Below the pieces are notes generated by a model, which worked only from the letters and a program-made list of their open reading frames with translations, was not told where the DNA came from and did no database searches. Made by a program: the position numbers and the translations under genes. A stretch of DNA of 64,000 bases, from NCBI GenBank assembly GCA_902826395.1, contig CADEER010000013.1:6560-70559 (forward strand), written 5' to 3'. Source of the stretch: an uncultured bacterium (GTDB lineage Bacteria; Desulfobacterota; Binatia; HRBIN30; CADEER01). This document shows, in pieces, positions 14,019 to 64,000 of this stretch (within the stretch, counting starts at the first letter, position 1; each line of letters begins with the position of its first letter).

Positions 14019-14210
14019 ATGGAACCCAAAGAGTCGATCCTGAACAGTAAAGAGGTGGCGCTGCTCCTCGATCTGAGTCCGGATACCGTCAACGAGTACG
14101 CCAGAAAGAGTGTTCTGCCGGCCTTCAAACAAGGCAGGCAGTGGCGATTTCTCGCTCGCGACATTCAGTCGTTCAAGCGCGAGATGCAGGAAGAAGCCAC
14201 TGCGGCCTAG
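14019..14210 (+). CDS. Excisionase-like helix-turn-helix (HTH_17/MerR-like) DNA-binding protein, 63 aa
   Basis: LNSKEVALLLDLSPDTV...LPAFKQGRQWRF pattern. Confidence 0.8.
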   Translation: MEPKESILNSKEVALLLDLSPDTVNEYARKSVLPAFKQGRQWRFLARDIQSFKREMQEEATAA

Positions 14211-14250
14211 CGCCGGCAGGCCCGTGGAGAAGAAGGGGATCAACCCAACC

Positions 14251-14991
14251 ATGGCTTTCGAGTCAACTGCTCCCCAAGCATACGAGAGCAAGCTTTACGG
14301 TGAACTTTCAGGCGTTTACGACCTGATCTTCGCCCGATTCTTCTATCCGCGCATCGCCGCGGTCATCCGCGATCTGCGGATTCCGCCAGGCGCCAAGGTG
14401 CTGGAGCTTGGGGTCGGTACGGGCCTCGCGTTGCGCGCCTATCCGCGGCACTGCCAGGTGACCGGCGTCGATCTGGCGCCGGACATGCTGGAGCGAGCGC
14501 AAGAGCGCATCGCGCGCAAGGGGTGGCGCCACATCCAGCTTCACGAGATGGACGCCATGAACCTCGATCTCGAGGACTCGAGTTTCGACTACGTGATGGC
14601 GTTCCACGTCGTCAGCGTCGTGCCGAAAGTCGACCGCTTCATGCGCGAGGCGCAACGCGTGTGCAAGGCGAACGGCAAGATCGTCGTCATCAACCATTTC
14701 CGCAGCGACAAGCGAGTGCTCGCGACGATCGACCGCAAGATCGAACCGATCACGCGGCGTGTCGGGTGGCACACGCTCGGCCGCGAGGAAGTCTTCCACG
14801 GTCTGCCGCTCGAGCTTTGCCGTGTGTACAAGACCTCGCGTCGATCGTTGTTCACCGTGGTCGTTGCGCGCAACGCAAAGAGCGACGAAAGCGCCGTGCA
14901 GGTCCCCCCGCAGTTGGTGACCGCCGCGGCCGGCGGGTCAATGGGGCAGATCGCTGCCGGGCCGAATCGGCACGAGGCCCCGGCGCATTAA
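14251..14991 (+). CDS. Class I SAM methyltransferase, PmtA-like phospholipid N-methyltransferase
   Basis: YDLIF, VLELGVGTGL, GVDLAPDML, MDAMNL and VINHF motifs typical of Rhodobacter-type PmtA. Confidence 0.7.
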   Translation: MAFESTAPQAYESKLYGELSGVYDLIFARFFYPRIAAVIRDLRIPPGAKVLELGVGTGLALRAYPRHCQVTGVDLAPDMLERAQERIARKGWRHIQLHEMDAMNLDLEDSSFDYVMAFHVVSVVPKVDRFMREAQRVCKANGKIVVINHFRSDKRVLATIDRKIEPITRRVGWHTLGREEVFHGLPLELCRVYKTSRRSLFTVVVARNAKSDESAVQVPPQLVTAAAGGSMGQIAAGPNRHEAPAH

Positions 14992-15516
14992 CCAGCGGGC
15001 ATCGCGCTGGCTGCCGGTGTGGAGCCAGCGCGAGTACGTGCGGACGGTCTGGCGATCGCTGCGAAAGACCTGCTCGAAGCTGATGTCGGTGAGCACCCGG
15101 ACGAGCTCCGGGAATCGCTCCGACATCTCGGCGAACAGCGACCGAGGTCGGCCCGGCGCCGGGACGCTGGCGAGATGCGCGTATGCGCTCCGCCCCAGCG
15201 CGATGTAGAAGTCGGCCGAGACGAGCTGTTGTTCCAGGTACTCCATGAACATGCCGGACAAGAACAGTGACGTGTCGCCGACGCGTCTCAGCTTGCCGGC
15301 GCGCTGGGCGGAATCGGCGGCCTGAAAGGACTCGAGGAAGTCGAGCGTCAAAGGCCGCCCCTGCCAGTTCTGCTCGGGGTGCGCGAAGTGCTCCATCAGG
15401 CGCACCAGATAGTGCTCGGTGCTCTCGCTGAGCTCGACCTGTTGCTCGCGGGCGGCCGTGCGGATCAAGTCGCGGAAGAAATCGGTCAACGGGCGACGGG
15501 TCAGGACTTCGTTCAT
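14938..15516 (-). CDS. Conserved hypothetical protein
   Basis: AGGAGG SD before ATG 15516; LRRVGDTSLFLSG...FYIALGRSAY motif recalled from uncharacterised proteins. Confidence 0.7.
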   Translation of the reverse strand: MNEVLTRRPLTDFFRDLIRTAAREQQVELSESTEHYLVRLMEHFAHPEQNWQGRPLTLDFLESFQAADSAQRAGKLRRVGDTSLFLSGMFMEYLEQQLVSADFYIALGRSAYAHLASVPAPGRPRSLFAEMSERFPELVRVLTDISFEQVFRSDRQTVRTYSRWLHTGSQRDARWLMRRGLVPIRPGSDLPH

Positions 15517-15697
15517 TGCCCCCTCCTCACTCCACGCTTCGCGCGGGCCCCTTTTCGCGCCGCGCACCGGGCGAGATTCTCTGCGTCGTCCCGGGGTATT
15601 GCAACCTGGATTTCGCCGCGCCCGGCGGGCGATGTGGCCAAAAGCCGGGTAGCCGGTGCTTGCGCTGTGCGCTATAGTGCGCGGCCGGAGGACGGCA

Positions 15698-17038
15698 GTG
15701 AAACTCAAGGCGCTCGCGACGGCATTGCTGGTGGTGGCCCTGTTCGCCACCGGCGGCGGTTGGTTGGCCGGTCAAGTATCGGCTCGGCAAGAGGACTACG
15801 AAAACCTGGAGGACTTCGCGAGCATCCTGGCGATGGTCCGCCGTCATTACGTGGATGACGTGACGACGCAAAAGCTCGTCGATGGCGCCATCCGCGGCAT
15901 GCTGAGCTCACTCGATCCGCACAGCGCCTATCTTCCGCCAGACGCTTACAAGGAGCTGCAGGTCGACACGAAGGGCAGCTTCGGTGGTCTGGGAATCGAG
16001 ATCACGCTGCGCGACGGGATCCTCACGGTCGTGTCGCCGATCGAAGATACGCCGGCGGCCCGCGCCGGCGTTCTCGCCGGGGACCAGATCATCAAGATCG
16101 AGGACGAGTTCACCAAGGACATGACGCTCATGCAGGCGGTCAAGCTCATGCGGGGCCCGAAGGGCACCCCGATCGAGCTCACGATTCGCCGCGAGGGGCA
16201 GGACGAGTGGCTCGACCTGACACTGGTCCGCGAGGTCATCCGCATCAAGAGCGTGAAGCATCGATCTCTCGAGCCGGGCTATGGGTATCTGCGGCTGACG
16301 CAGTTCCAGGAGCGCACTGCGACCGAGGCGGCCGCAGCGCTGGAGTCGTTGGCCAACGAGACGCCCGAAGGCCTGCAGGGCTTGGTTTTGGACCTGCGCA
16401 ACAATCCCGGCGGTCTGTTGTCGCAAGCGGTGAGCGTCAGCGACATCTTCCTCGATTCGGGACTGGTGGTGTACACCGAGGGCCGCCTCGACAACCAGGC
16501 TCAGAAGTTCTACGCGCACAAAGGTAACAGCCGTACCGATTTTCCGATGATCGTGCTGGTCAACGGCGGTAGCGCCAGCGCGTCGGAGATCGTCGCCGGC
16601 GCACTGCAAGATCACCGCCGCGCGATCATTCTGGGCACCCAGACGTTTGGGAAGGGCTCGGTACAGACGATCCTGCCGATCCACGCCGAAGAGACGGCGG
16701 ATTCTAACTCGGCGATTCGACTGACCACGGCGCGGTACTACACGCCGAATGGAAGATCGATCCAGGCGACCGGCATTACGCCCGACATCGTCATGGATGC
16801 CGAGGTGAAGACGGCGGAGGCGGACAATCGGCAGCAGCCCGACACCATCCGCGAGCAGAACCTGCCGCATCATCTGGAGAACGGACCGCCGAAACCGCAG
16901 CAGCAAGAGGATGGCGGTTCGCCAGAGGAAGAGATCGCTGACGGCAGCGAGGCTCCGGATGCGCAGTTGCAGCGGGCGCTCGAGTTGCTCAAGAGCTGGA
17001 ACGTCTTCAAGTCGGTGGTAGCGCATAAGGCGGCCTGA
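15698..17038 (+). CDS. ctpA: Carboxyl-terminal processing protease S41A with PDZ domain
   Basis: LDPHSAY, FGGLGIEI, DLRNNPGG, SASASEIVAG, TFGKGSVQ and TTARYYTP motifs; GGAGG SD. Confidence 0.93.
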   Translation: MKLKALATALLVVALFATGGGWLAGQVSARQEDYENLEDFASILAMVRRHYVDDVTTQKLVDGAIRGMLSSLDPHSAYLPPDAYKELQVDTKGSFGGLGIEITLRDGILTVVSPIEDTPAARAGVLAGDQIIKIEDEFTKDMTLMQAVKLMRGPKGTPIELTIRREGQDEWLDLTLVREVIRIKSVKHRSLEPGYGYLRLTQFQERTATEAAAALESLANETPEGLQGLVLDLRNNPGGLLSQAVSVSDIFLDSGLVVYTEGRLDNQAQKFYAHKGNSRTDFPMIVLVNGGSASASEIVAGALQDHRRAIILGTQTFGKGSVQTILPIHAEETADSNSAIRLTTARYYTPNGRSIQATGITPDIVMDAEVKTAEADNRQQPDTIREQNLPHHLENGPPKPQQQEDGGSPEEEIADGSEAPDAQLQRALELLKSWNVFKSVVAHKAA

Positions 17039-53589: not shown

Positions 53590-54852
53590 TCAAAAGACGA
53601 AGCTCGCTTCGAACCATGCGCGCCAACGGTCGGGCAATGGCTCGGTGCGGCCGTCGAAGTAGGCGAACTTGGTCAGCACCGTGACATACGGCCCGAAGGC
53701 GCGCTGCAGGATGGCGTCGAGCTCCCAGCCGAGGGAATCACTGCCCTCGTCACTCCAGAACCGGTGGTAGATGAATCCGCTCTTCATGCCCCAGGGCAGT
53801 TGTGGCGTCACGCTGCCGTAGAGGTCCTGCAAGCCATTGGGACCGCCGTTGTCGAGAAAGGCGTCGGCCCAGCCGTTGAACTTGTGCGCCGTGGAGAGCG
53901 GTGTGACGAAACGGGCCTCTCCGTCGTCGGACCCGAGGAGCTCGTAGCCGAGGGCGACTCCGCCGATTCCCTGATAACTGGCGCCGCCTTCGGCAGCGAC
54001 GTAGTGGGCCACGTAGTCGACCGGGTTGTTCGCGGCGTCGGTCTGCGCCGCGTAGGACGCCGCGTAGGACAGCGCCCATGGCGCGGTAAGCGGCTGCGCC
54101 CCGGTGACGCGCAGGCCGTACGAATTGGAGGAATTGCCCGGCGAGTTCTCGAAGTCGAGAAGGTAGGCGAAGGCGGCGATCCGCGCGGTCGGCCACGCGT
54201 CGTAGCCGATGCGCAGCAGATGTGAATCGGATCGAAAGTTTCGCAATGCCGGCGGTCCCTGATTGGCGAAGATGCGAGTCACGTAGTCGATGTACCCGTA
54301 CAGCAGTGACAGATGCTCGACTCCGAGGCTGGTCGAGGCGCGCACGGCGTCGAAGACCTGTTCATTCTGACGCCACGCGACGTCGCCAATGAAGCGATGA
54401 TCGTCGAGCGCCATGCGCTGGCGGCCCACCGTGGCGTCGGCACCCCAAAGCGTGGGGTTCTGGTAGCGCACGAAGAGCTGGTGCAGATCGGTGTCGTCCG
54501 GGTCCGCGATCGGTGTCTGACCGGTCGGCTCCTCGACTGCGTCGAAGTACTGATCGCCATCGATCGCCAGGACATTTTGCAGCTCGGCATATCCCGACAG
54601 TCCGTGGAATGGCTTCGAACCGACGCCGAGAAGCGTTCGTATCGTGTACGCTTGCGACGACTCCAGGGACTCGAAGTCGGCGAGCTCGATTCGCGCTCGG
54701 ACGTTGAGATTCACCTTGTAGTACTCGTTGTCGAGCAGTCGCCGCACTTGATCGCTCGTGGTCGGCGACGGCGCTGGCGGCTCGGCGGCCCAACCGGCGC
54801 ACGCGGCGCACACAACCATGTTGGCGATCGGCCAGCTCCATCTCCACCGCAT
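53590..54852 (-). CDS. Outer-membrane beta-barrel, alginate-export family porin
   Basis: Signal peptide, GRQRMALDDHRFIGDVAWRQNEQVFDA, TAHKFNGWADAF and terminal Phe (ASFVF). Confidence 0.8.
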   Translation of the reverse strand: MRWRWSWPIANMVVCAACAGWAAEPPAPSPTTSDQVRRLLDNEYYKVNLNVRARIELADFESLESSQAYTIRTLLGVGSKPFHGLSGYAELQNVLAIDGDQYFDAVEEPTGQTPIADPDDTDLHQLFVRYQNPTLWGADATVGRQRMALDDHRFIGDVAWRQNEQVFDAVRASTSLGVEHLSLLYGYIDYVTRIFANQGPPALRNFRSDSHLLRIGYDAWPTARIAAFAYLLDFENSPGNSSNSYGLRVTGAQPLTAPWALSYAASYAAQTDAANNPVDYVAHYVAAEGGASYQGIGGVALGYELLGSDDGEARFVTPLSTAHKFNGWADAFLDNGGPNGLQDLYGSVTPQLPWGMKSGFIYHRFWSDEGSDSLGWELDAILQRAFGPYVTVLTKFAYFDGRTEPLPDRWRAWFEASFVF

Positions 54853-54872: not shown

Positions 54873-57119
54873 CTATTGGTTCCGCCGCCCACTTCGAGTG
54901 GGCCCGTTGTTTCGTCTCGACGCCACGAAGCGCTCGATGCGCACGGCCGCCATTTTGTACGACGGCTGGCGCGAGTGAGGGTCGAACGCGGCGAAGGTCA
55001 AACGGTTGGTCTCGGCGAAGTGCATGGGCATGAAGACCTGACCGATCCGGATCGAGCGGGTCGGGCGCGCGGTCGCGATGGCGGATCCGCGGCGCGAGAC
55101 GATGCGGACGCGATCTCCGGCGCCGACGTCGAGTCGCGCCGCGTCGTCGGGATGGATCTCCACGTAGGGTTGCGCATCCGACAGCTTCCGCAGCACCGCC
55201 GATTTGGCGGTGCGCGTCTCGGTGTGCCACTGCGCGACTCCGGCGCGGCCACTGAGCAGCGTCATCGGATAGGTGGGATCGGGCCGTTCGGGAGCAGGGC
55301 GCGGCTCGTCGATCACGAAGCGAGCCTTGCCGTCGGTGTGAAAGAACGCGCCGTCGGCGAACAGCCGGCGCTGCGTTGCCGGCTGCTCGGTGCCAGCCGG
55401 GCAGGGCCATTGAATGCCGCCCTGCCGCTGCAGATCGGCGTAGCCTCCGATGCCGCTGAAGTCGCAGGGCTGGCCTGCCGACAGGTCCTGCAAGATGCGG
55501 AACGCCGCTTCGGGCGATGTCCAACGCCGCACCGTTTCGGCGCACCCCCAGTATTCGGCGACCAGGCGGAAGATGTGGAAGTCGGCGAGAGCCGCGCCCG
55601 GTGCTCGGCTGACCTTCTGTATCAGGCCGATCCTGCGTTCGGAGTTGATGAACGTTCCGGTCTTTTCCCCCCAGCCGGCTGCCGGCAGAAACACGTCCGC
55701 GCGCTGCGCCGTCTCGGTCGTGCGATAGAGATCCTGCACGACGAGGCAATCCAGATTCGCGAACGCCTCGCCAAGGCCGGCGCTGTCGATCCAAGAGTGC
55801 ACTGGATTGGTCGCCACGACCCACAGCCCGCGGATCCGCCCTTCTCGAATCCGCTCGACGATGTCGTCGTACGTCCGGCTCTCGGCGGCCGGGACGGCGT
55901 CCTCGTCGACGTCGAGGACGCGCGCCACTTCGGCGCGCTGGGCTGCTCCAAAGGTGCGGCCGCCCGGCAGGCAGGTGATGTTGCTGAATAGGCGCGAGCC
56001 CATGGCGTTGGTCTGACCGGTGATCGAGTTGGCTCCGGTGCCCGGCTTGCCGATGTTGCCGGTGAGCAGCGCCAGATCGATGATCGCCTGCGCCGTGCGC
56101 ACGCCTTCGTGGCTTTGGTTGACGCCCATCGTCCACCAGAACGAAACACGCCGTCCGGGTCGGATGAGATCGGCGAGCGCGTGCAACTGCGCTTCGGCGA
56201 GGCCCGTCTCGCTGCAGACCCGCTCGGGGTTGTAGGCGTCGACGTGGCGGGCGAAGTCGGCGAAGCCGCTGGTGTGGCGGTCGACGAACTCGCGGTCGAT
56301 CCAGCCGCGCCGCAGCAGCAGGTATGCGAGACCGTACAGCAACACCAGGTCGCTCTTCGGCCGCGGTGACACATGCAGCGTTGCCATCGCCGCCGTCTCG
56401 GTAAGCCGCGGGTCGATTACGGCGATCTGCGGGTTGCGCCGGTTGCGCAGCACCCAATGCCAGAGAATCGGGTGTGCGATCGCGGGATTGGCGCCGACGA
56501 AGATCAGTACGTCGGAGAGTTCGAGATCCTCGTAGGTGAAGGGCGGCGCGTCGAATCCGAACGACTGCTTGTACGCGACGTGCGCGGTCGCCATGCACTG
56601 CCGCGTATTGGAATCGCCGTCGATGCCCATGCCGCCGCGCGCCACCTGGCCGAGCAGCGCCATCTCCTCGGTGGTCATCTGACCGGTGCTGAGGAACGCC
56701 AGCGCCTCGCTGCCGTGCTCGACCTGGATGGCGCGAAAGCGTTGCACGAAGGCGCGCATCGCCGTGTCCCAGTCGACCGGACGCAGGGCGCCGTCAATGC
56801 GTAGGTACGGCGTCGCAGCCCGATCCGGCGCGCTCAGCGGCGCCAGCGCCTCCCACCCCTTGGGACAGGCCATCCCCGCGTTTACCGGATACGCCGGCGA
56901 CGGGGTCAGGTTGACGGCGCGGCCGTCGCGCATGTGCACATCCAACGCGCATCCGGTCGAACAGAAGCCGCAGATCAGGGTGCGCAACTCTTCCGGCGCA
57001 AGGCGCGCCGGAATACGCCCGAGGTCAAAGCCGCCCGCCACCTGCTCGAGCTCGGTGCTCAATGGGCCGCGCCGCCTGAGCATCAGGTCGGCGAGCCGGA
57101 GTGCACTTTCGGCGAGCAT
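54873..57119 (-). CDS. nasA: Assimilatory-type molybdopterin nitrate reductase catalytic subunit (short, no C-terminal [2Fe-2S])
   Basis: CGFCSTGC...CPKG [4Fe-4S] motif; Mo ligand NTRQCMATA; [14 protein letters not shown] and SRQPSYK motifs. Confidence 0.85.
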
Positions 57120-57127
57120 CAGTGCCT

Positions 57128-58672
57128 TCAGGGATTCCGCGGCGCGACCGCGGCGCGAAAGAAGAGATGGCGGTCGACGCCGTCGCCGGCGAGCCACAAG
57201 GCGCATGCGAGTACGGTGGTCATCGTCGGTTGCGCGATCAGTGCGGTGGCGCCGAGCAGCACGGCACATGCCGCGGCCGCCGCCAATCTCATGTGCCACC
57301 ACGGGCGCAGCGCGCCGCCGAGGAGTTGGCGAGCGGTAGAGGGCGCCTGTCGCCAGCCGTCCCACACCTCGAAGAGTATCTTCGCGACCACCGCCGCGGT
57401 GGCGACGCCGACCAGCAGCGGTCGAATCTCTTCACCGCTGAGCCGATGCGCGAGCAGCAACAGCACGGCGCCGGACGCAGCGGCGGCGAGGAAGAACCGC
57501 GCCGGCGTCGCGGTGCGCGCCCAATGATCGCGCGGCGTATCCCGGTAGACCATGGCAGACGCAAAGGCAGCCGCGATCCCCGTCGCGCCCGTGAGCGCGA
57601 CCAGTCCGCGATCACCACCGATCTGAAGAGCGTGCGCCAGCGCCGCCGCCGCGGCGAGCCCGGCAAATGCGGACAGAGCGACGATCTCGCGACTGAGCCA
57701 CGACGTGCGCAGCCCGAGCACGGCGCGGAAGGCCCACTGCGGCCGCCCGAGATGGAAGAGCGCCGCGACCATGCCGGCGACGGCGCTGCCGAGCCCGAGG
57801 CTGATCGCCGTCCCGTGCGCGTCGCCGATCGGCAGCACGGCCGCCAATCCCAGGATACCGATCGCCGCCTGTGTCAAACTCAGCATCACCACCAGCGAGG
57901 GGTGCGACTCCGCCGGCGCGGCCGCCACAGCGATCGCGGTCGGCGCGGCGTGCGAGCGCGAGACGTATGCCGTTGTCGGGCGCGTGTAGCTCGCGTCGGG
58001 CGCGCCGGGTACCGCCGCGAAGCGCTCGGAGCATGTAGCCGCGGTCAGGTCGGTGTCGACGACGGTGATGCGGATCGCGTCGCTCGGACAACTCTGAACG
58101 CAAGCGGGCGCCTCGCCGGCGGCGAGGCGATCGGTGCACATGTCGCATTTGCGGACGATGCCGCGCGCGGCGTTGTACTGCGGCACGCCGTACGGGCACT
58201 TCATCACGCAGTACTGGCAGCCGATGCATTGGTCGTCGAGGTGGCGAACGATGCCAGTGTGCCGGTCCTTCTCGTAGGCGCGCACCGGACAGCCGCTCAG
58301 ACAAGCCGGGTCGAGGCAGTGGTGGCAGGCCGCCGTGACATGGCGCAGCAGAGGCTGCGCATCGTCGCCGCCGAGCAGCAATCCGACCGAGCGCCACGTC
58401 TCGCCGGGGTCGAGTCCGTTGCGGTTGTGGCAACCCGTGACGCAGGCCTTGCAGCCAGTGCAGCGATCGAGATCGACCTCGAAGGCGTACTGTTGTCCAG
58501 GATGGGGCGGCGCCGCCGGCATCAGGCCGCGGTAGCGCGCCGCGCCGGCGGCGATGTCGCCGCGCTCATGCGCGAGAGCAAAGGATTCCGCGGCACCGAG
58601 ATTCTGCTGCTCGCCCAGCGCGTCGGCGAGAAGCGTCGCGTTTCGTTCGATGCCGATCGGCTGCGGGATCAT
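57128..58672 (-). CDS. Fused DmsB-like 4x[4Fe-4S] protein and DmsC/NrfD-like 8-TM membrane anchor
   Basis: [42 protein letters not shown], then HPSLV and HLGRP..SWLSREI. Confidence 0.85.
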
Positions 58673-59070
58673 TCGGCCCTCCCGCATGGCGCGTGGGTCG
58701 CCGCGGTGCGCTCGCGTGCGACGACCTCGGCCGACGGCACGCCGACGAATACCCGACCATCGGCGACTACACGTACCGGGAAGGTCAACAGATCCGGCGT
58801 GTCGCCGGCGAAGGCGGCGCCAGTGCGCAGCGAGAAAGTGCGCTTGTGCATCGGGCAGGCGACCTTGGGTTCGCCGTCGCGCTCACCGGTCATCCCGCGC
58901 CACAGCACTTGCTCGTTCCAGTGCGGGCAGCGGTTCTGGACGGCATACCACTCGTCGCGCGCAGCGATCCGGAACACGGCGATCTGGATTCCCTCATAAA
59001 AGACGCAGGCGCCGCCGTCCGGAATCACGTCGTCGCGATGACACACGGCGATCCACAGCGGCTCAGACAT
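58669..59070 (-). CDS. nirD: Nitrite reductase small Rieske subunit
   Basis: NRCPH and VACPMHK Rieske ligands; QIAVFR motif. Confidence 0.92.
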   Translation of the reverse strand: MSEPLWIAVCHRDDVIPDGGACVFYEGIQIAVFRIAARDEWYAVQNRCPHWNEQVLWRGMTGERDGEPKVACPMHKRTFSLRTGAAFAGDTPDLLTFPVRVVADGRVFVGVPSAEVVARERTAATHAPCGRAE

Positions 59071-61630
59071 GACGCGCCTCTTCGAAGCGCACCGGCGCGT
59101 CCTCGTGCGGACCGCCATTGACGGGCGGCAGGGAGATGGCGCCGCCGCCCGAAGACGGGCGGATCTGACCGCGCTCGTCGGCGAACGCGATCGACGGGTC
59201 GCTTTCCGACGCGTTGACGAAGGCGCGAAAGCGACTCCGCTTCTCCGGGTCGTTGACGACTTCGGCCCACTCGCAGCGATAGCCGTCGACGGCCGCCTGC
59301 ATCTCGGCGTCGAGCTGCGCCCCGATGCCGAGCACGTCGTCGATGATCACGGCCCGCAGGTAGTCGATGCCGCCGTCGAGCTCTTCCAGCCAGCGCGCCG
59401 TGCGGGTCAGCGGATCGGCGGTGCGGATGTAGAACATCAGAAACCTGTCGATGTAGCGCAGGCAGGTCTCGTCATCGATGCCGGCGGCGAGCAGCACGGC
59501 GTGCCGCGGCTTCGAGCCGCCGTTGCCGCAGACGTAGAGATTCCAGCCTTCGGAGGTGGCGATGATGCCGAAGTCCTTGCTTCGGGCCTCCGCGCACTCG
59601 CGAATGCATCCCGACACCGCCGACTTGAGCTTGTGCGGCGCGCGCAGGCCCTTGTAGCGCTCTTCGACGCGGATCGCGAAGCCGACCGAGTCGAGAACGC
59701 CGTAGCGGCACCACGTCGATCCGACGCAGCTCTTCACGGTGCGCATCGCCTTCGCGTAGGCATGGCCGCTCTCGAAGCCGGCGGTGACCAGGTCTTCCCA
59801 GATGTCGGGCAGTTGATCGAGACGGGCGCCGAGCATGTCGATGCGCTGGCCGCCGGTGATCTTCACGTACAGGTTGTAGCGACGCGCCACTTCGCCGATC
59901 GCGATCAGCTTCTCGGCGGTGATCTCGCCGCCCGGAATGCGAGGAATCACCGAATAGGTGCCGCCGCGCTGGATGTTGGCGAGAAAGCGATCGTTGGTGT
60001 CCTGGATGACCGGCTGCTCGCTCGCCGGCTCGGCGTGGATCGATGCGAGGATCGACGCAACGACCGGCTTGCAGACCTCGCAGCCGCCGCCGCGACCGCA
60101 CTGGGTGAGCACCTCGGAATAGGTGTGGAAGCCGCGCACCCGGACGAGATCGAACAGCTCCTGTCGGCGCAGCGCGAAGTGCTCGCAGATCTGCTTGCGC
60201 ACCTCGACTCCGGCGCGCTGCAGCTCGCGCTCGAGGACTTGTTTGATCTGAGGCCCGCAACCGCCGCACCCGGTGGTAGCCTTGGTACAGGCCTGGATCG
60301 CCGGCATGGTGACGGCGCCGCCGGCGACCGCGGTGACGACGTCGTCAACGGTGACGTTGTTGCAAGTGCACAGCAGGCTGTCGCCGGTCAGCTCGGCGCC
60401 TTCGCCGCCGCGTACCGCCGTGCCGTCGACGATCAGCGACAGCGGCCGCTCCGGCAGAGGCTCGGCTCGGCGGAACAGCCCCAGCAGGTTGGCGTAGTCG
60501 CTGGTGTCGCCGACCAGCACCGCGCCGATCAGGGTGCGAGTCTCGCGGCGGACGATCAGCTTCTTGTACACGCCGGCGACCTCGTCGCGCACGGCGACGT
60601 GCGTGTGCTCCATCGTCTGCGGCGCCGTCGACTCACCGATCGAGGCGACCTCGACGCCGAGCAGCTTGAGCTTCGTCGACAGGTCGCCGGCGCGGAACGA
60701 CTTGTCAAAGCCTGCAATCTGAGCGGCGGCGACGTCGGCCATCTCGAAGCCCGGAGCGACCAGGCCGTAGACCGTGCCGTCGTGGCTGGCGCACTCGCCG
60801 ATCGCGAAGATGGTCGGGTCCGAGGTGCGCATGGTCGCGTCGACCGCGATGCCGCCGCGCGGTCCGAGCTCGAGGCCGCAGCCGGCGGCGAGCTCCTGGC
60901 GCGGCTTGATGCCGGCCGAGACGACGATCAGATCGACGTCGAGCGACTCGCCGCCGTCGAAGCAGAAGCGCATGCCGCCGGACTCGGTTCCGATGATCTC
61001 GTTGGTGCGCTTGTTGGTGTGCACTTGCACGCCGAGTGCTCGGATCTTGGCGGCGAGCAGCTCGGCGCCGTCGCGATCGAGCTGGCGCGGCATCAGCCAC
61101 GGCGCGGCCTCGACGACGTGGGCGCTCAAACCCAGATCGTAGAGAGCCTTGGCGGCCTCGAGACCCAGCAGGCCGCCGCCGATCACCGCTGCCGACTGGC
61201 GGGAAGCGGCCGCGTCGCGGATCGCGTCGAGGTCTTCGATGGTGCGATAGACGAAGACACCGCGTCGGTCGATGCCTGGCAGCGGCGGTACGAACGGCGC
61301 CGAGCCGGTTGCCAGGACCAGGTGGTCGTATCGGACCTCGAGTCCGCCGCCGGCGGCGACGACCCTGCGCCCGCGATCGACCGCGATCGCGGGCGTGCCG
61401 ACGCGCAACTCGATGCCCTGATCGCGGTACCAGGAGCGCGGTGCGATCTCGAGGTCGGCGGCGCTCTTGCCGGAGAAGTACTCGGTGAGATGCACGCGAT
61501 CGTAGGCCGGGCGCGGCTCCTCGCCGAGCACGACGATGCGGAAGCGCTCGCAGCCGCGGGTCTCGCGCAGCAGCGCGCAGAAGCGCTGCCCGACCATGCC
61601 GTTGCCCACTACGACGACCGTCTGCTTCAT
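59063..61630 (-). CDS. nirB: NADH-dependent siroheme nitrite reductase large subunit
   Basis: GNGMVG and GGGLLG FAD/NAD motifs, BFD CTCNN and CEVC, siroheme ligands KSCVGSTWC and SGCIREC. Confidence 0.96.
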   Translation of the reverse strand: MKQTVVVVGNGMVGQRFCALLRETRGCERFRIVVLGEEPRPAYDRVHLTEYFSGKSAADLEIAPRSWYRDQGIELRVGTPAIAVDRGRRVVAAGGGLEVRYDHLVLATGSAPFVPPLPGIDRRGVFVYRTIEDLDAIRDAAASRQSAAVIGGGLLGLEAAKALYDLGLSAHVVEAAPWLMPRQLDRDGAELLAAKIRALGVQVHTNKRTNEIIGTESGGMRFCFDGGESLDVDLIVVSAGIKPRQELAAGCGLELGPRGGIAVDATMRTSDPTIFAIGECASHDGTVYGLVAPGFEMADVAAAQIAGFDKSFRAGDLSTKLKLLGVEVASIGESTAPQTMEHTHVAVRDEVAGVYKKLIVRRETRTLIGAVLVGDTSDYANLLGLFRRAEPLPERPLSLIVDGTAVRGGEGAELTGDSLLCTCNNVTVDDVVTAVAGGAVTMPAIQACTKATTGCGGCGPQIKQVLERELQRAGVEVRKQICEHFALRRQELFDLVRVRGFHTYSEVLTQCGRGGGCEVCKPVVASILASIHAEPASEQPVIQDTNDRFLANIQRGGTYSVIPRIPGGEITAEKLIAIGEVARRYNLYVKITGGQRIDMLGARLDQLPDIWEDLVTAGFESGHAYAKAMRTVKSCVGSTWCRYGVLDSVGFAIRVEERYKGLRAPHKLKSAVSGCIRECAEARSKDFGIIATSEGWNLYVCGNGGSKPRHAVLLAAGIDDETCLRYIDRFLMFYIRTADPLTRTARWLEELDGGIDYLRAVIIDDVLGIGAQLDAEMQAAVDGYRCEWAEVVNDPEKRSRFRAFVNASESDPSIAFADERGQIRPSSGGGAISLPPVNGGPHEDAPVRFEEARHV

Positions 61631-61642
61631 GACGAGCTCTCC

Positions 61643-62458
61643 TTACGCCGCGTCGCTCTGGCGGGGTTGCGCCGCCGTCTCGGCGGCGAGAAAACCGATC
61701 AACCTCTCGCGCAACGCGTAGTACTGCGGATCTTCGAGCAGTTGACCGCGCTTGCGGGGGCGGGACAGTCGCACGTCGAGAATGTCGCCGACGCGCGCTC
61801 GCGGTCCGGACGTCATCATCACCACGCGGTCCGACAGCAGCAGCGCTTCGTCGACGTCGTGCGTGATCAACACCGCCGTGATCGCGTACTTGCTCCACAG
61901 GTCGAGGAGCACTTCCTGCAACTCCAGCCGGGTCAACGAGTCGAGCATTCCGAAAGGCTCGTCGAGCAGGAGCAGCTTCGGCTGCAGGGCGAAGGCACGG
62001 GCGATTCCGACCCGCTGCTGCATGCCGGCCGAAAGCTGGCGCGGGCTCGCGTCGAGGGCGCCGCCGAGCCCGACCAGATGCAGGTAGTAAGAGGCGATCT
62101 GGCGCTGCTCGGCGCGGCTCGCGTGCGGGTAGACCTGCCGCACTCCGAGCATCACGTTCTCGAAAGCGCTCAGCCAAGGCAGCAGGCAAGGAGATTGGAA
62201 GACGACACCGCGGTCCGGGCCGGCGCCGTCGATCTCGCGACCGTCGAGGACGATGCCGCCGTCGGTGAGTGGCGTCAGGCCGGCGATCATCGACAGGACG
62301 GTCGATTTGCCGCAGCCGGAGTGGCCGATGATCGAGAGCAGCTCGCCGCGCTGTACGTGCAAGTTGAAGTCCTCGACTACCGCTACCGGACCGGACTGCG
62401 TCGGGTACGCCTTGGTGACCTTGTAGAGCTCGAGATAGGAGCGTTCGTTGCGCTTCAT
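61643..62458 (-). CDS. nrtD: Nitrate ABC transporter ATP-binding subunit
   Basis: [33 protein letters not shown] and THDVDEA motifs; GAGGAG SD. Confidence 0.85.
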
Positions 62459-62468
62459 CGCATGCTCC

Positions 62469-63329
62469 TCAAACGTAGGGGCGAGCCGCCGGTCGCAGAT
62501 CGGCCGGGGATAAGTCCGGCAGCGGCGGCAGCGGCGCACTCGAAGTTGCAGGTCCGCGCCGGCCGATCTGCATCATGTACTCGGTGATGTCGTGGCGGAT
62601 GCGCTTGAACGCAGGGTCGTGGTTGACGCCCTTGCGATCGCGCGGCCGCGCCAACGGGACGTGGAAGCTCGGACCGAGCGTCGCGCGCGGCCCCTGGGTG
62701 AGCGGCACGATGCGATCGGCGAGCAGGATCGCTTCGTCGATGTCGTTGGTGATCAGGACGACGGTCTTCTGGTCGGCCTGCCAGATGCGCTCGATCTCGT
62801 CCTGCAGTGTCGCGCGGGTGAGAGCGTCGAGAGCGCTCAGCGGCTCGTCGAGGAGCAGGATCTTCGGATCGATCGCGAGCGCCCGCGCCACCGCGACCCG
62901 CTGGCGCATGCCGCCCGACAGCTCCGCGGGGCGCTTCGCCGCGGCAGCGGACAGATTCACCAGCGCGATCGACTCTTCGACGCGCGCCCGGCGCTGCTCT
63001 CTCGTCCACCGCGGGTACACGCTGTCGACGGCAAGCGCGACGTTGTCGCGCACGCTCAACCAGGGCAGCAGCGAGTAGTTCTGAAAGACGACGCCGCGAT
63101 CCGGACCCGGGCCGACGACGGGCGCGCCGTCGAGCTCGATGCGGCCGGTGTCGGGTTTGCTGAGTCCGGCGAGCAGCGACAGCAGGGTGGTCTTGCCGCT
63201 GCCCGAGTAGCCGATGATGGCGACGAGCTCGCCGCGTTCGATCGACAGGTTGATTCCCGACAGCACTTCGTTGCGCCGACCGTTGGTGACGTACGACTTG
63301 CTGACCGCGCAGATGTCGAGATGGGCCAT
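62469..63329 (-). CDS. nrtC: Nitrate ABC transporter ATP-binding subunit (NrtC-like, no C-terminal regulatory domain)
   Basis: [30 protein letters not shown] and [13 protein letters not shown] motifs. Confidence 0.8.
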
Positions 63330-63337
63330 GGCGCGCC

Positions 63338-64000
63338 TCACATCTGCTCGCGGCCGCAGCTGCCGAGGCGTTGAACGGCGATCATGATCCGATCGAGCAG
63401 GAAGCCGATGATTCCGATGGTGGCGACGGCGACCATGATCTGGGCGAGAGTCTGGCTGCTGCCGTTCTGGAACATGTCCCAGACGAACTTTCCGAGGCCG
63501 GGGTTCTGCGCCAGCATCTCCGCCGCGATCAGCACCATCCAGCCGACTCCGAGCGACAGGCGCAGTCCGGTGAAGATGAGTGGCAGCGCGGCGGGGACGA
63601 CGATCTTGGTCACGGTGCGGAACCAACCGAGCTTCAGCACCCGCGCGACGTTGAGGTAATCGCGCTCGACGGACGAGACGCCGAGGGCGGTGTTCACCAG
63701 GGTCGGCCACAGGGAGCACAGCGCCACCGTCACCGCCGAGCTGATGAACGACTTCTCGAACATCGGATCGGCCGATGTGTAGAGCGCGCTGACCAGGATC
63801 ATCACGATCGGCAACCACGCCAGCGGCGACACCGGCTTGAAAATCTGGATGAGCGGGTTGATCGCCGCGTAGAAGCCTGGGCTGATGCCGCACAGGATGC
63901 CGAGCGGAACCGCGACCAGCGTCGCGATGACGAAGCCGGCGAACACGGTCCCGACACTGGTCGCGATCTGGTCGAAGTAGGTCGGCTTGCCGGTGTAGCG
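63338..64000 (-). CDS. nrtB: Nitrate ABC transporter permease, 5' part outside window
   Basis: [20 protein letters not shown] and [20 protein letters not shown] motifs; frame open to 64000. Confidence 0.88.

Follow-up and report, generated by a model that had tools for sequence, protein, structure and literature searches.

The assimilatory nitrate reductases (Nas) of prokaryotes are, in the textbook account, supplied with electrons in three ways: by ferredoxin or flavodoxin, by NADH via a diaphorase, or by NADH via NirB/NasG. The subject here is a gene pair that is probably supplied in another way. It lies in a 64,000-nt stretch of DNA (hereafter, the window) from an uncultured bacterium of the Binatia (contig CADEER010000013.1, assembly GCA_902826395.1). 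It consists of nasA (54873-57119, minus strand), which encodes a short-form Nas catalytic subunit of 748 residues with three Pfam molybdenum (Mo)-enzyme domains, and the gene directly upstream, here called X (57128-58672, minus strand), which encodes a 514-residue fusion of a DmsB-type iron-sulfur (Fe-S) protein and a DmsC-type membrane anchor. Judged from sequence comparisons and structure predictions, X-NasA is probably a cytoplasm-facing, heme-free (mena)quinol:nitrate oxidoreductase that serves assimilation, with an NADH-dependent NirBD handling the nitrite.

The closest described systems are E. coli DmsABC and Thermus PsrABC, which, like X-NasA, combine a subunit carrying Mo-bis(pyranopterin guanine dinucleotide) (Mo-bisPGD) and the FS0 cluster with a 16-Cys four-cluster protein and an eight-helix, heme-free anchor. 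In contrast to these enzymes, however, X fuses the B and C modules in a single polypeptide and adds a 60-residue N-terminal extension, the twin-arginine (Tat) signals are missing and the charge bias is inverted, which points to the cytoplasm. NasA, unlike DmsA and PsrA, belongs to the Nap/Nas/Fdh branch, and its role would be assimilatory. SoeABC likewise unites a Mo enzyme, an Fe-S subunit and an NrfD-like anchor, and has the cytoplasmic (N-side) orientation that is predicted for X-NasA. By its description, however, it is made of separate subunits, passes electrons from substrate to quinone, and differs in substrate and catalytic clade. SoeABC appears among the NrfD-like complexes in a figure legend of a review of the NrfD family, which lists no complex resembling X-NasA (PMC8076601). 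NarGHI reduces nitrate with quinol at a site facing the cytoplasm, as proposed for X-NasA, but NarI is a di-heme b anchor that takes part in a proton-motive redox loop, while X has no heme ligands, and NarG is an Asp-ligated enzyme of the type II dimethyl sulfoxide (DMSO) reductase family that is only remotely related to NasA. Nevertheless, in Mycobacterium tuberculosis the quinol-dependent NarGHI serves assimilation and passes its nitrite to NirBD, a functional precedent that is to be taken as a lead and not as a test.

X is almost certainly a dedicated partner of NasA. When one genome per GTDB species was scanned with a profile of X, at least 598 relatives were found, and the best 80 were kept. 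NasA lies immediately 3′ of X in 78 of the 78 loci that have downstream DNA (53-62% identity, ~95% coverage); the two others, L073 and L075, have none and were not counted. The reverse scan, of metagenomes with a NasA profile (best 80 loci, 56-76% identity), placed X directly upstream of NasA in all 77 loci with usable upstream DNA, 64 of them recognized by tblastn and 13 by the family hidden Markov model (HMM). Eleven NasA loci had seemed to lack X; this was traced to contig ends and to poorly conserved transmembrane helices 5-8 (TM5-8), and the family HMM found the C-terminus of X in every one. Among the loci sampled, no X homologue was found beside a non-nitrate Mo enzyme, and a census of the neighbors of 85 X loci revealed no universal partner other than NasA. 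The initial annotation, made from the sequence alone, had named co-occurrence of X with short NasA as the pattern to be looked for and predominant linkage of X to non-nitrate Mo enzymes as the sign to the contrary; the former is what these surveys display. NasA has the Mo-enzyme domains and the FS0 motif of a catalytic subunit of a complex iron-sulfur molybdoenzyme (CISM), and it is obligately adjacent to X, its putative binding partner. In the verrucomicrobial locus L057 (11957-17032), two tandem copies of NasA follow X.

The pair is found in Planctomycetota, Verrucomicrobiota, Fibrobacterota, Omnitrophota and Myxococcota (Sorangium, Haliangiales, Polyangia and Bradymonadales), and a separate look-up of an X homologue led to a metagenome-assembled genome labeled Actinobacteria with the gene order nrtABC-MFS-X-NasA (MFS, major facilitator superfamily). 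It appears to be the standard form of Nas in several phyla that are large and abundant in the environment. When 1.84 billion cluster representatives were searched exhaustively with phmmer, 705 clusters were found at E ≤ 1e-30. The best 150 of these are 438-610 residues long with E ≤ 1e-99, most of them matching over both domains. Counted in clusters at 50% identity, the fused family has a confirmed minimum of 150 among the matches listed and may reach ~700. A word-indexed search gave at least 7,585 matches. In 72,556 records of plasmids or chromids no fused X was found, although 670 of them carry a NasA homologue (at most 41% identity); the tblastn matches to X on plasmids are all unfused genes of the DmsB type.

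X can be divided into a family-specific N-terminal extension (residues 1-60), a DmsB-type four-cluster domain (61-205), a linker (206-257) and a DmsC/PsrC-type anchor with eight transmembrane helices (258-514). Pfam recognizes Fer4_11 at residues 113-202 (E 1.8e-22) and DmsC at residues 299-505 (E 6.6e-13), and the NCBIfam model DMSO_dmsB (TIGR02951) scores 139 bits. The four-cluster domain (58058-58492, minus strand) is ~40% identical to E. coli DmsB and has 16 cysteines for 4 × [4Fe-4S], grouped in the DmsB pattern (71/74/77/81, 116/119/124/128, 149/152/155/159 and 176/179/191/195). All 16 are invariant in an alignment of 120 homologues that are 42-66% identical to X, with a mean column identity of 43%. 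An AlphaFold2 model of X (pLDDT 90.6, pTM 0.88) places a ferredoxin-like domain ahead of eight long helices, and Foldseek matched the first half to PsrB (2vpw_B, TM-score 0.72), ArrB and FdnH, and the second half to PsrC (2vpw_C, TM-score 0.74) and ActC. By sequence, a PDB search with X returned only Fe-S subunits and no match to the anchor, which was recognized by the fold search and by hhalign; the match between NarH and X is weak (58.5 bits). Pfam, the alignment and the model bear out the initial annotation, in which X had been read as four [4Fe-4S] Cys motifs fused to an eight-helix anchor with the motifs HLGRP and SWLSRE. The N-terminal extension (58493-58672) is helical and has no counterpart in DmsB; P52, P56 and Q61 are invariant, and Q22, A27, V28, F31, H35 and Y47 are nearly so.

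The two motifs delimit a putative quinol-site loop (57686-57754, minus strand), HLGRP corresponding to residues 307-311 and SWLSRE to residues 324-329, with the codon of H307 at 57752-57754 and that of E329 at 57686-57688. For comparison, E. coli dmsC was taken from an annotated record and aligned to the X family profile by hhalign, which gave a probability of 97.3% over 261 columns. H65, S82, E87 and R271 of DmsC correspond to H307, S324, E329 and R501 of X, with identical 17- and 22-residue spacings. In DmsC, replacement of H65 and E87 blocks quinol oxidation, and S82 and the arginine in TM8 are conserved across NrfD-like subunits (PMC8076601). In X, H307-x-G-x-P and S324-W-x-S-R-E329 are invariant in the 120 homologues, and R501 is conserved in at least 90%. 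A further conserved pair, E497/R501, aligns with E267/R271 of DmsC, which are among the putative proton-path residues (PMC8076601). Histidine is conserved at only two positions in this part of X, being invariant at 307 and kept in at least 90% of the 120 homologues at 257; a bis-His pair is not conserved, as would be expected of a heme-free anchor.

The orientation of X in the membrane appears to be opposite to that of DmsBC. The loops on the Fe-S side of X carry a mean of 12.7 lysines and arginines versus 2.1 on the opposite side (120 homologues), whereas in E. coli DmsC, where the DmsB side is periplasmic, the bias is reversed (2 versus 5). No Tat motif was found in any of the 120 X homologues, and the N-terminus of NasA is hydrophilic, with no hydrophobic h-region of a signal peptide. 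From the charge bias, the missing Tat signal and the hydrophilic NasA N-terminus, the Fe-S domain, the quinol site and NasA itself are predicted to be on the cytoplasmic side. The Tat signal on the catalytic subunit and the periplasmic Fe-S side that mark canonical DmsABC and PsrABC are both lacking.

NasA is made up of the Pfam domains Molybdop_Fe4S4, Molybdopterin and Molydop_binding, the last of which reaches residue 723 of 748, and nothing further is recognized. The FS0 Cys motif is at residues 50-85, and the Mo-ligand Cys175 is part of the sequence RQCMATA (residues 173-179; codon 56595-56597, minus strand). An alternative start codon exists (ATG at 57083), but the N-termini of orthologues favor 57119. 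The window NasA stops 25 residues past Molydop_binding, and X-linked NasAs in general stop within ~30 residues of it, save for those of L019 (+148 aa) and L043 (+110 aa). The features that mark NADH- or ferredoxin-dependent Nas, a BFD domain, a diaphorase or a dedicated ferredoxin/flavodoxin gene, are missing from the window NasA and, apart from NirB, from its visible operon, in agreement with the initial annotation, according to which NasA ends after its molybdopterin-binding domain without a BFD-like [2Fe-2S] domain. Residues 18-47 (56979-57068) include a conserved clade-specific segment, GPLTxEL..PGxFGLGxxPxR, that is absent from classical Nas. One might speculate that this segment and the N-terminal extension of X are where the two proteins dock, or where a chaperone binds.

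The classical Nas enzymes (Klebsiella NasA/NasC, Paracoccus NasC/NasBG, Bacillus NasBC and cyanobacterial NarB) share with NasA the catalytic fold, FS0 and the Cys-Met motif, and their operon partners are likewise Nrt or NarK, NirBD and NasT/NasS-like regulators. However, they are only 35-37% identical to the window NasA, and the 71 X-linked NasAs group together in a maximum-likelihood tree (SH-aLRT 81; 100 with the Cetobacterium sister), apart from classical Nas, NapA and FdhF. The classical examples inspected carry electron-transfer modules of their own: the 885-aa NasA of Sinorhizobium has a C-terminal Fer2_BFD domain (Pfam), that of Ruegeria is of similar length (886 aa) and has the same nirB-nirD-nasA context, the Hymenobacter Nas is fused to Pyr_redox_2 and BFD, and the Tsukamurella Nas to a sulfite-reductase-type flavoprotein. 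None of these BFD-, diaphorase- or flavoprotein-bearing enzymes has an X beside it. The separate clade and the absence of X from these examples are what would be expected if X and such modules are mutually exclusive, as the initial annotation had anticipated.

The nearest outgroup of the X-linked clade is on a Cetobacterium somerae plasmid (L092, 4980-8738; 41% identical), where the Mo subunit adjoins a 135-aa 4Fe-4S dicluster protein and an FAD-dependent oxidoreductase. The arrangement suggests that the ancestor of the X-linked clade may already have had a polyferredoxin partner. In Sorangium sp. So ce388 (L008), X-NasA is followed by a second, divergently oriented NasA-like gene (14055-16205, minus strand; 33% identical) that groups with the Deinococcus-type short nitrate reductase, outside the X-linked clade.

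In the proposed mechanism, X and NasA would be two polypeptides that make up a three-module, cytoplasm-facing CISM, with NasA docking on X. (Mena)quinol would be oxidized at the DmsC-type site near the cytoplasmic face of the eight-helix domain, with the involvement of H307, S324 and E329, and the electrons would pass through the four [4Fe-4S] clusters of X to FS0 and on to the Mo-bisPGD of NasA, which would reduce nitrate to nitrite in the cytoplasm. NirBD would then reduce nitrite to ammonium with NAD(P)H. This division of labor, a quinol-fed nitrate step and an NADH-fed nitrite step, had been put forward in the initial annotation and is supported by synteny, by the conservation of the quinol site and by the domain content of NirB; the pair would be expected to be physiologically necessary. 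Because the anchor is heme-free and the quinol site is on the same side as the Fe-S clusters and the active site, the X-NasA step itself is probably not electrogenic, although some proton handling via E497/R501 is conceivable. With the quinone pool as the supply in place of direct NADH, an NADH:quinone oxidoreductase could still conserve energy upstream. The phyla that carry X-NasA are mainly menaquinone users, which is again a lead and not a test.

A bolder version of this reading, which we put forward only tentatively, is that the nitrate reductases of prokaryotes comprise, besides Nar, Nap and soluble Nas, an unrecognized fourth class, X-NasA. Assimilation would then draw its first two electrons through the respiratory chain, with energy conserved at NADH dehydrogenase and possibly through an E497/R501 proton path, and at low oxygen X-NasA might also act as an electron sink by turning nitrate into nitrite. 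If this were true, it would explain the nitrate-reducing phenotypes of Planctomycetes such as Lacipirellula parvula, and metagenomic surveys would be miscounting, with NasA taken to be assimilatory only and X entered as a "formate dehydrogenase Fe-S subunit".

The surroundings of the pair in the window are those of a nitrate assimilation operon. G+C is 65-72% across the region, and every real gene is shadowed by long antisense open reading frames (ORFs), but all the Pfam and NCBIfam matches are on the minus strand, where the gene order is nrtB-nrtC-nrtD-nirB-nirD-X-nasA-porin. nrtB, encoding a permease of a nitrate ATP-binding cassette (ABC) transporter, starts beyond the end of the window (63338 to beyond 64000) and was identified from its ORF and translation; in the operon of the nearest relative, L081, a BPD_transp_1 gene occupies its position. 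It is followed by two genes for ABC ATPases, nrtC (62469-63329; Pfam ABC_tran, E 4.3e-34) and nrtD (61643-62458; ABC_tran, E 1.7e-31). nirB (59063-61630) encodes the large subunit of an NAD(P)H nitrite reductase, with scores above cut-off for both TIGR02374 (1016 bits) and NF011565 (1072 bits) and the Pfam domains Pyr_redox_2 (FAD/NAD), Fer2_BFD ([2Fe-2S]) and NIR_SIR (siroheme/4Fe-4S). nirD (58669-59070) encodes the Rieske-type small subunit (Pfam Rieske_2; TIGR02378, 96.9 bits against a cut-off of 74.65). The last gene (53590-54852) encodes an Alginate_exp-type outer-membrane porin (PF13372, E 6.2e-11). All of these are on the minus strand.

Read from the sequence, the junctions are tight: a 12-nt gap between nrtD and nirB, an 8-nt overlap between nirB and nirD, an ATGA overlap of the nirD stop with the start of X, with GGGAGGG upstream, and gaps of 8 nt between X and nasA and 20 nt between nasA and the porin gene. 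The complete operon of L081 consists of a NasT-like gene, two NMT1_2 genes, nrtBCD, nirBD, X, nasA and the porin gene; its first genes (785-2711) encode a NasT-like ANTAR response regulator and a NasS-like NMT1_2 protein, and the part of the window operon past base 64000 is probably similar. Neither the visible operon nor that of L081 has a diaphorase gene other than nirB. The initial annotation is upheld on these points: a tightly coupled operon in the order given, and no separate diaphorase gene in its visible part.

Clustering of the neighbors of the 85 X loci found NirB at 63, NarK-like MFS proteins at 43, ABC ATPases at 18, a CysJ-like reductase at 17, and NrtA-like proteins and Alginate_exp porins at 12 each, and no conserved small ferredoxin or flavodoxin. 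Nitrate uptake together with an assimilatory nitrite reductase, the operon context expected of a Nas, is thus present in the window, in L081 and in the census. Verrucomicrobial loci, and some from elsewhere, have a CysJ-like flavoprotein and an NIR_SIR hemoprotein in place of NirBD. In L009 (6548-10013) and L004 (13433-15190), a CysJ-like reductase with flavodoxin, FAD and NAD domains and an NIR_SIR hemoprotein adjoin X-NasA, a pair that looks like a sulfite-reductase-style NADPH nitrite reductase. Several loci, L036, L046 and L048 among them, have X-NasA with no reductase nearby.

Could X be no more than a membrane-tethered polyferredoxin, through which NAD(P)H electrons reach NasA from NirB/NirD or from the CysJ-like flavoprotein? 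The anchor would then be passive and its quinol site vestigial, the DmsC-like domain serving, for example, to hold Nas beside the Nrt or NarK transporter. Such a route would suit the ATGA overlap of nirD and X, the adjacency of NirBD in 63 and of a CysJ-like reductase in 17 of the 85 loci, and the soluble 4Fe-4S dicluster protein and FAD oxidoreductase that accompany the Mo subunit of the Cetobacterium outgroup. Paracoccus NasG, a NirD-like Rieske protein that relays NADH electrons to NasC, also speaks for it. We nevertheless consider it unlikely: a passive anchor is hard to reconcile with the invariance of H307, S324 and E329 and the near-invariance of R501 in a family with so low a mean column identity, some loci have no reductase nearby, and X stays constant across loci that differ in their type of nitrite reductase. 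Similarly, there is only a slim chance that X-NasA is mainly a dissimilatory or redox-balancing enzyme, a heme-free functional analogue of NarGHI whose placement in assimilation operons is secondary, an alternative that is compatible with the quinol-fed reading. In its favor, the modules are arranged as in respiratory CISM enzymes, and Dedysh et al. treat such a gene pair in the context of anaerobic respiration; their strain PX69 was positive for dissimilatory nitrate reduction in the API 20NE test (PMC6995999). However, the neighbors are assimilatory (Nrt, NasT-like ANTAR and NasS-like NMT1_2 proteins, NirBD or CysJI-like proteins and a MobA-like nucleoside triphosphate transferase), X-NasA was not seen next to genes for the respiratory reduction of nitrite, NO or N2O, and a cytoplasmic-side quinol site without hemes would give no redox loop.

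That the Mo enzyme is a formate dehydrogenase in place of a nitrate reductase is highly improbable, and this identity was rejected. It is true that the best matches of NasA in a PDB sequence search are formate dehydrogenases, along with Desulfovibrio NapA, that the formate dehydrogenase model TIGR01591 scores 459 bits, and that JGI names X homologues accordingly. However, this score is below the family cut-off (666), as are those for NasA_Halo (NF041323, 459.5 of 1000) and NasC (NF047855, 425.1 of 1100). All 71 X-linked orthologues have RQCMAT[AS] or RQCMASA, of the Cys-Met type found in NapA (RHCMASA) and classical Nas (RLCM..), as opposed to the Sec/Cys-His of FdhF (RVC(U)H). At the level of sequence, the Mo-ligand motif settles the question in favor of a nitrate reductase, and the context is uniformly one of nitrate and nitrite metabolism.

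Several points do weigh against a quinol-fed nitrate reductase. NasA falls under the cut-off of every equivalog model, and the assignment of its substrate rests on context and active-site motif. NirBD adjoins the pair in most loci and in the window nirD is translationally coupled to X, and it is conceivable that NADH electrons enter X through NirBD. The conserved residues of the quinol site could serve folding instead. The partner check covers the best 80 loci of each scan, in a family of 705 clusters at E ≤ 1e-30 whose divergent tail might have other partners, and full-text literature searches found neither biochemistry nor genetics of X-NasA.

Such a pair has been noticed once before. The genome paper of L. 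parvula PX69 (2020) devotes one sentence to such a gene pair, which lies beside NarK and an assimilatory NAD(P)H nitrite reductase (PMC6995999). The enzyme was named NapA and discussed under anaerobic respiration, and the paper neither analyzes its orientation, quinol site or distribution nor reports any biochemistry (PMC6995999). By its description this pair is X-NasA, and two relatives in the Lacipirellulaceae, Adhaeretor (L007) and Aeoliella (L036), belong to the X-NasA set. That sentence is the sole relevant text found in the full-text literature, and no characterization was found. The initial annotation was thus right that the system is uncharacterized, but the gene pair itself had already been mentioned. 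X-NasA is a widespread, uncharacterized combination of known modules with a new wiring and orientation. If the reading given here is true, a membrane-bound Nas fed with quinol would add a fourth electron supply to the textbook three, nitrogen assimilation would become coupled to how reduced the quinone pool is, with a change in its energy cost, and organisms without Nar or Nap would gain a candidate enzyme for reducing nitrate to nitrite.

Homologues of X (P0009-P0120) go by names such as "DMSO reductase anchor subunit", "DmsC/YnfH family..." and, from JGI in many cases, "formate dehydrogenase iron-sulfur subunit". Since NasA is the obligate partner, the last of these appears to be a misannotation, and a systematic one, which could inflate metagenomic calls of formate dehydrogenase, a common error on X homologues that the present reading, if true, would correct.

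The porin gene at the end of the window operon is also part of a recurrent pattern. A porin of the Alginate_exp family follows nasA in the window, in L081 (13891-15171) and in L095, and the family is also present in L129 and L011 (9613-11175); the census counted it in 12 of 85 X-NasA loci, from several phyla. It is a candidate nitrate/nitrite channel.

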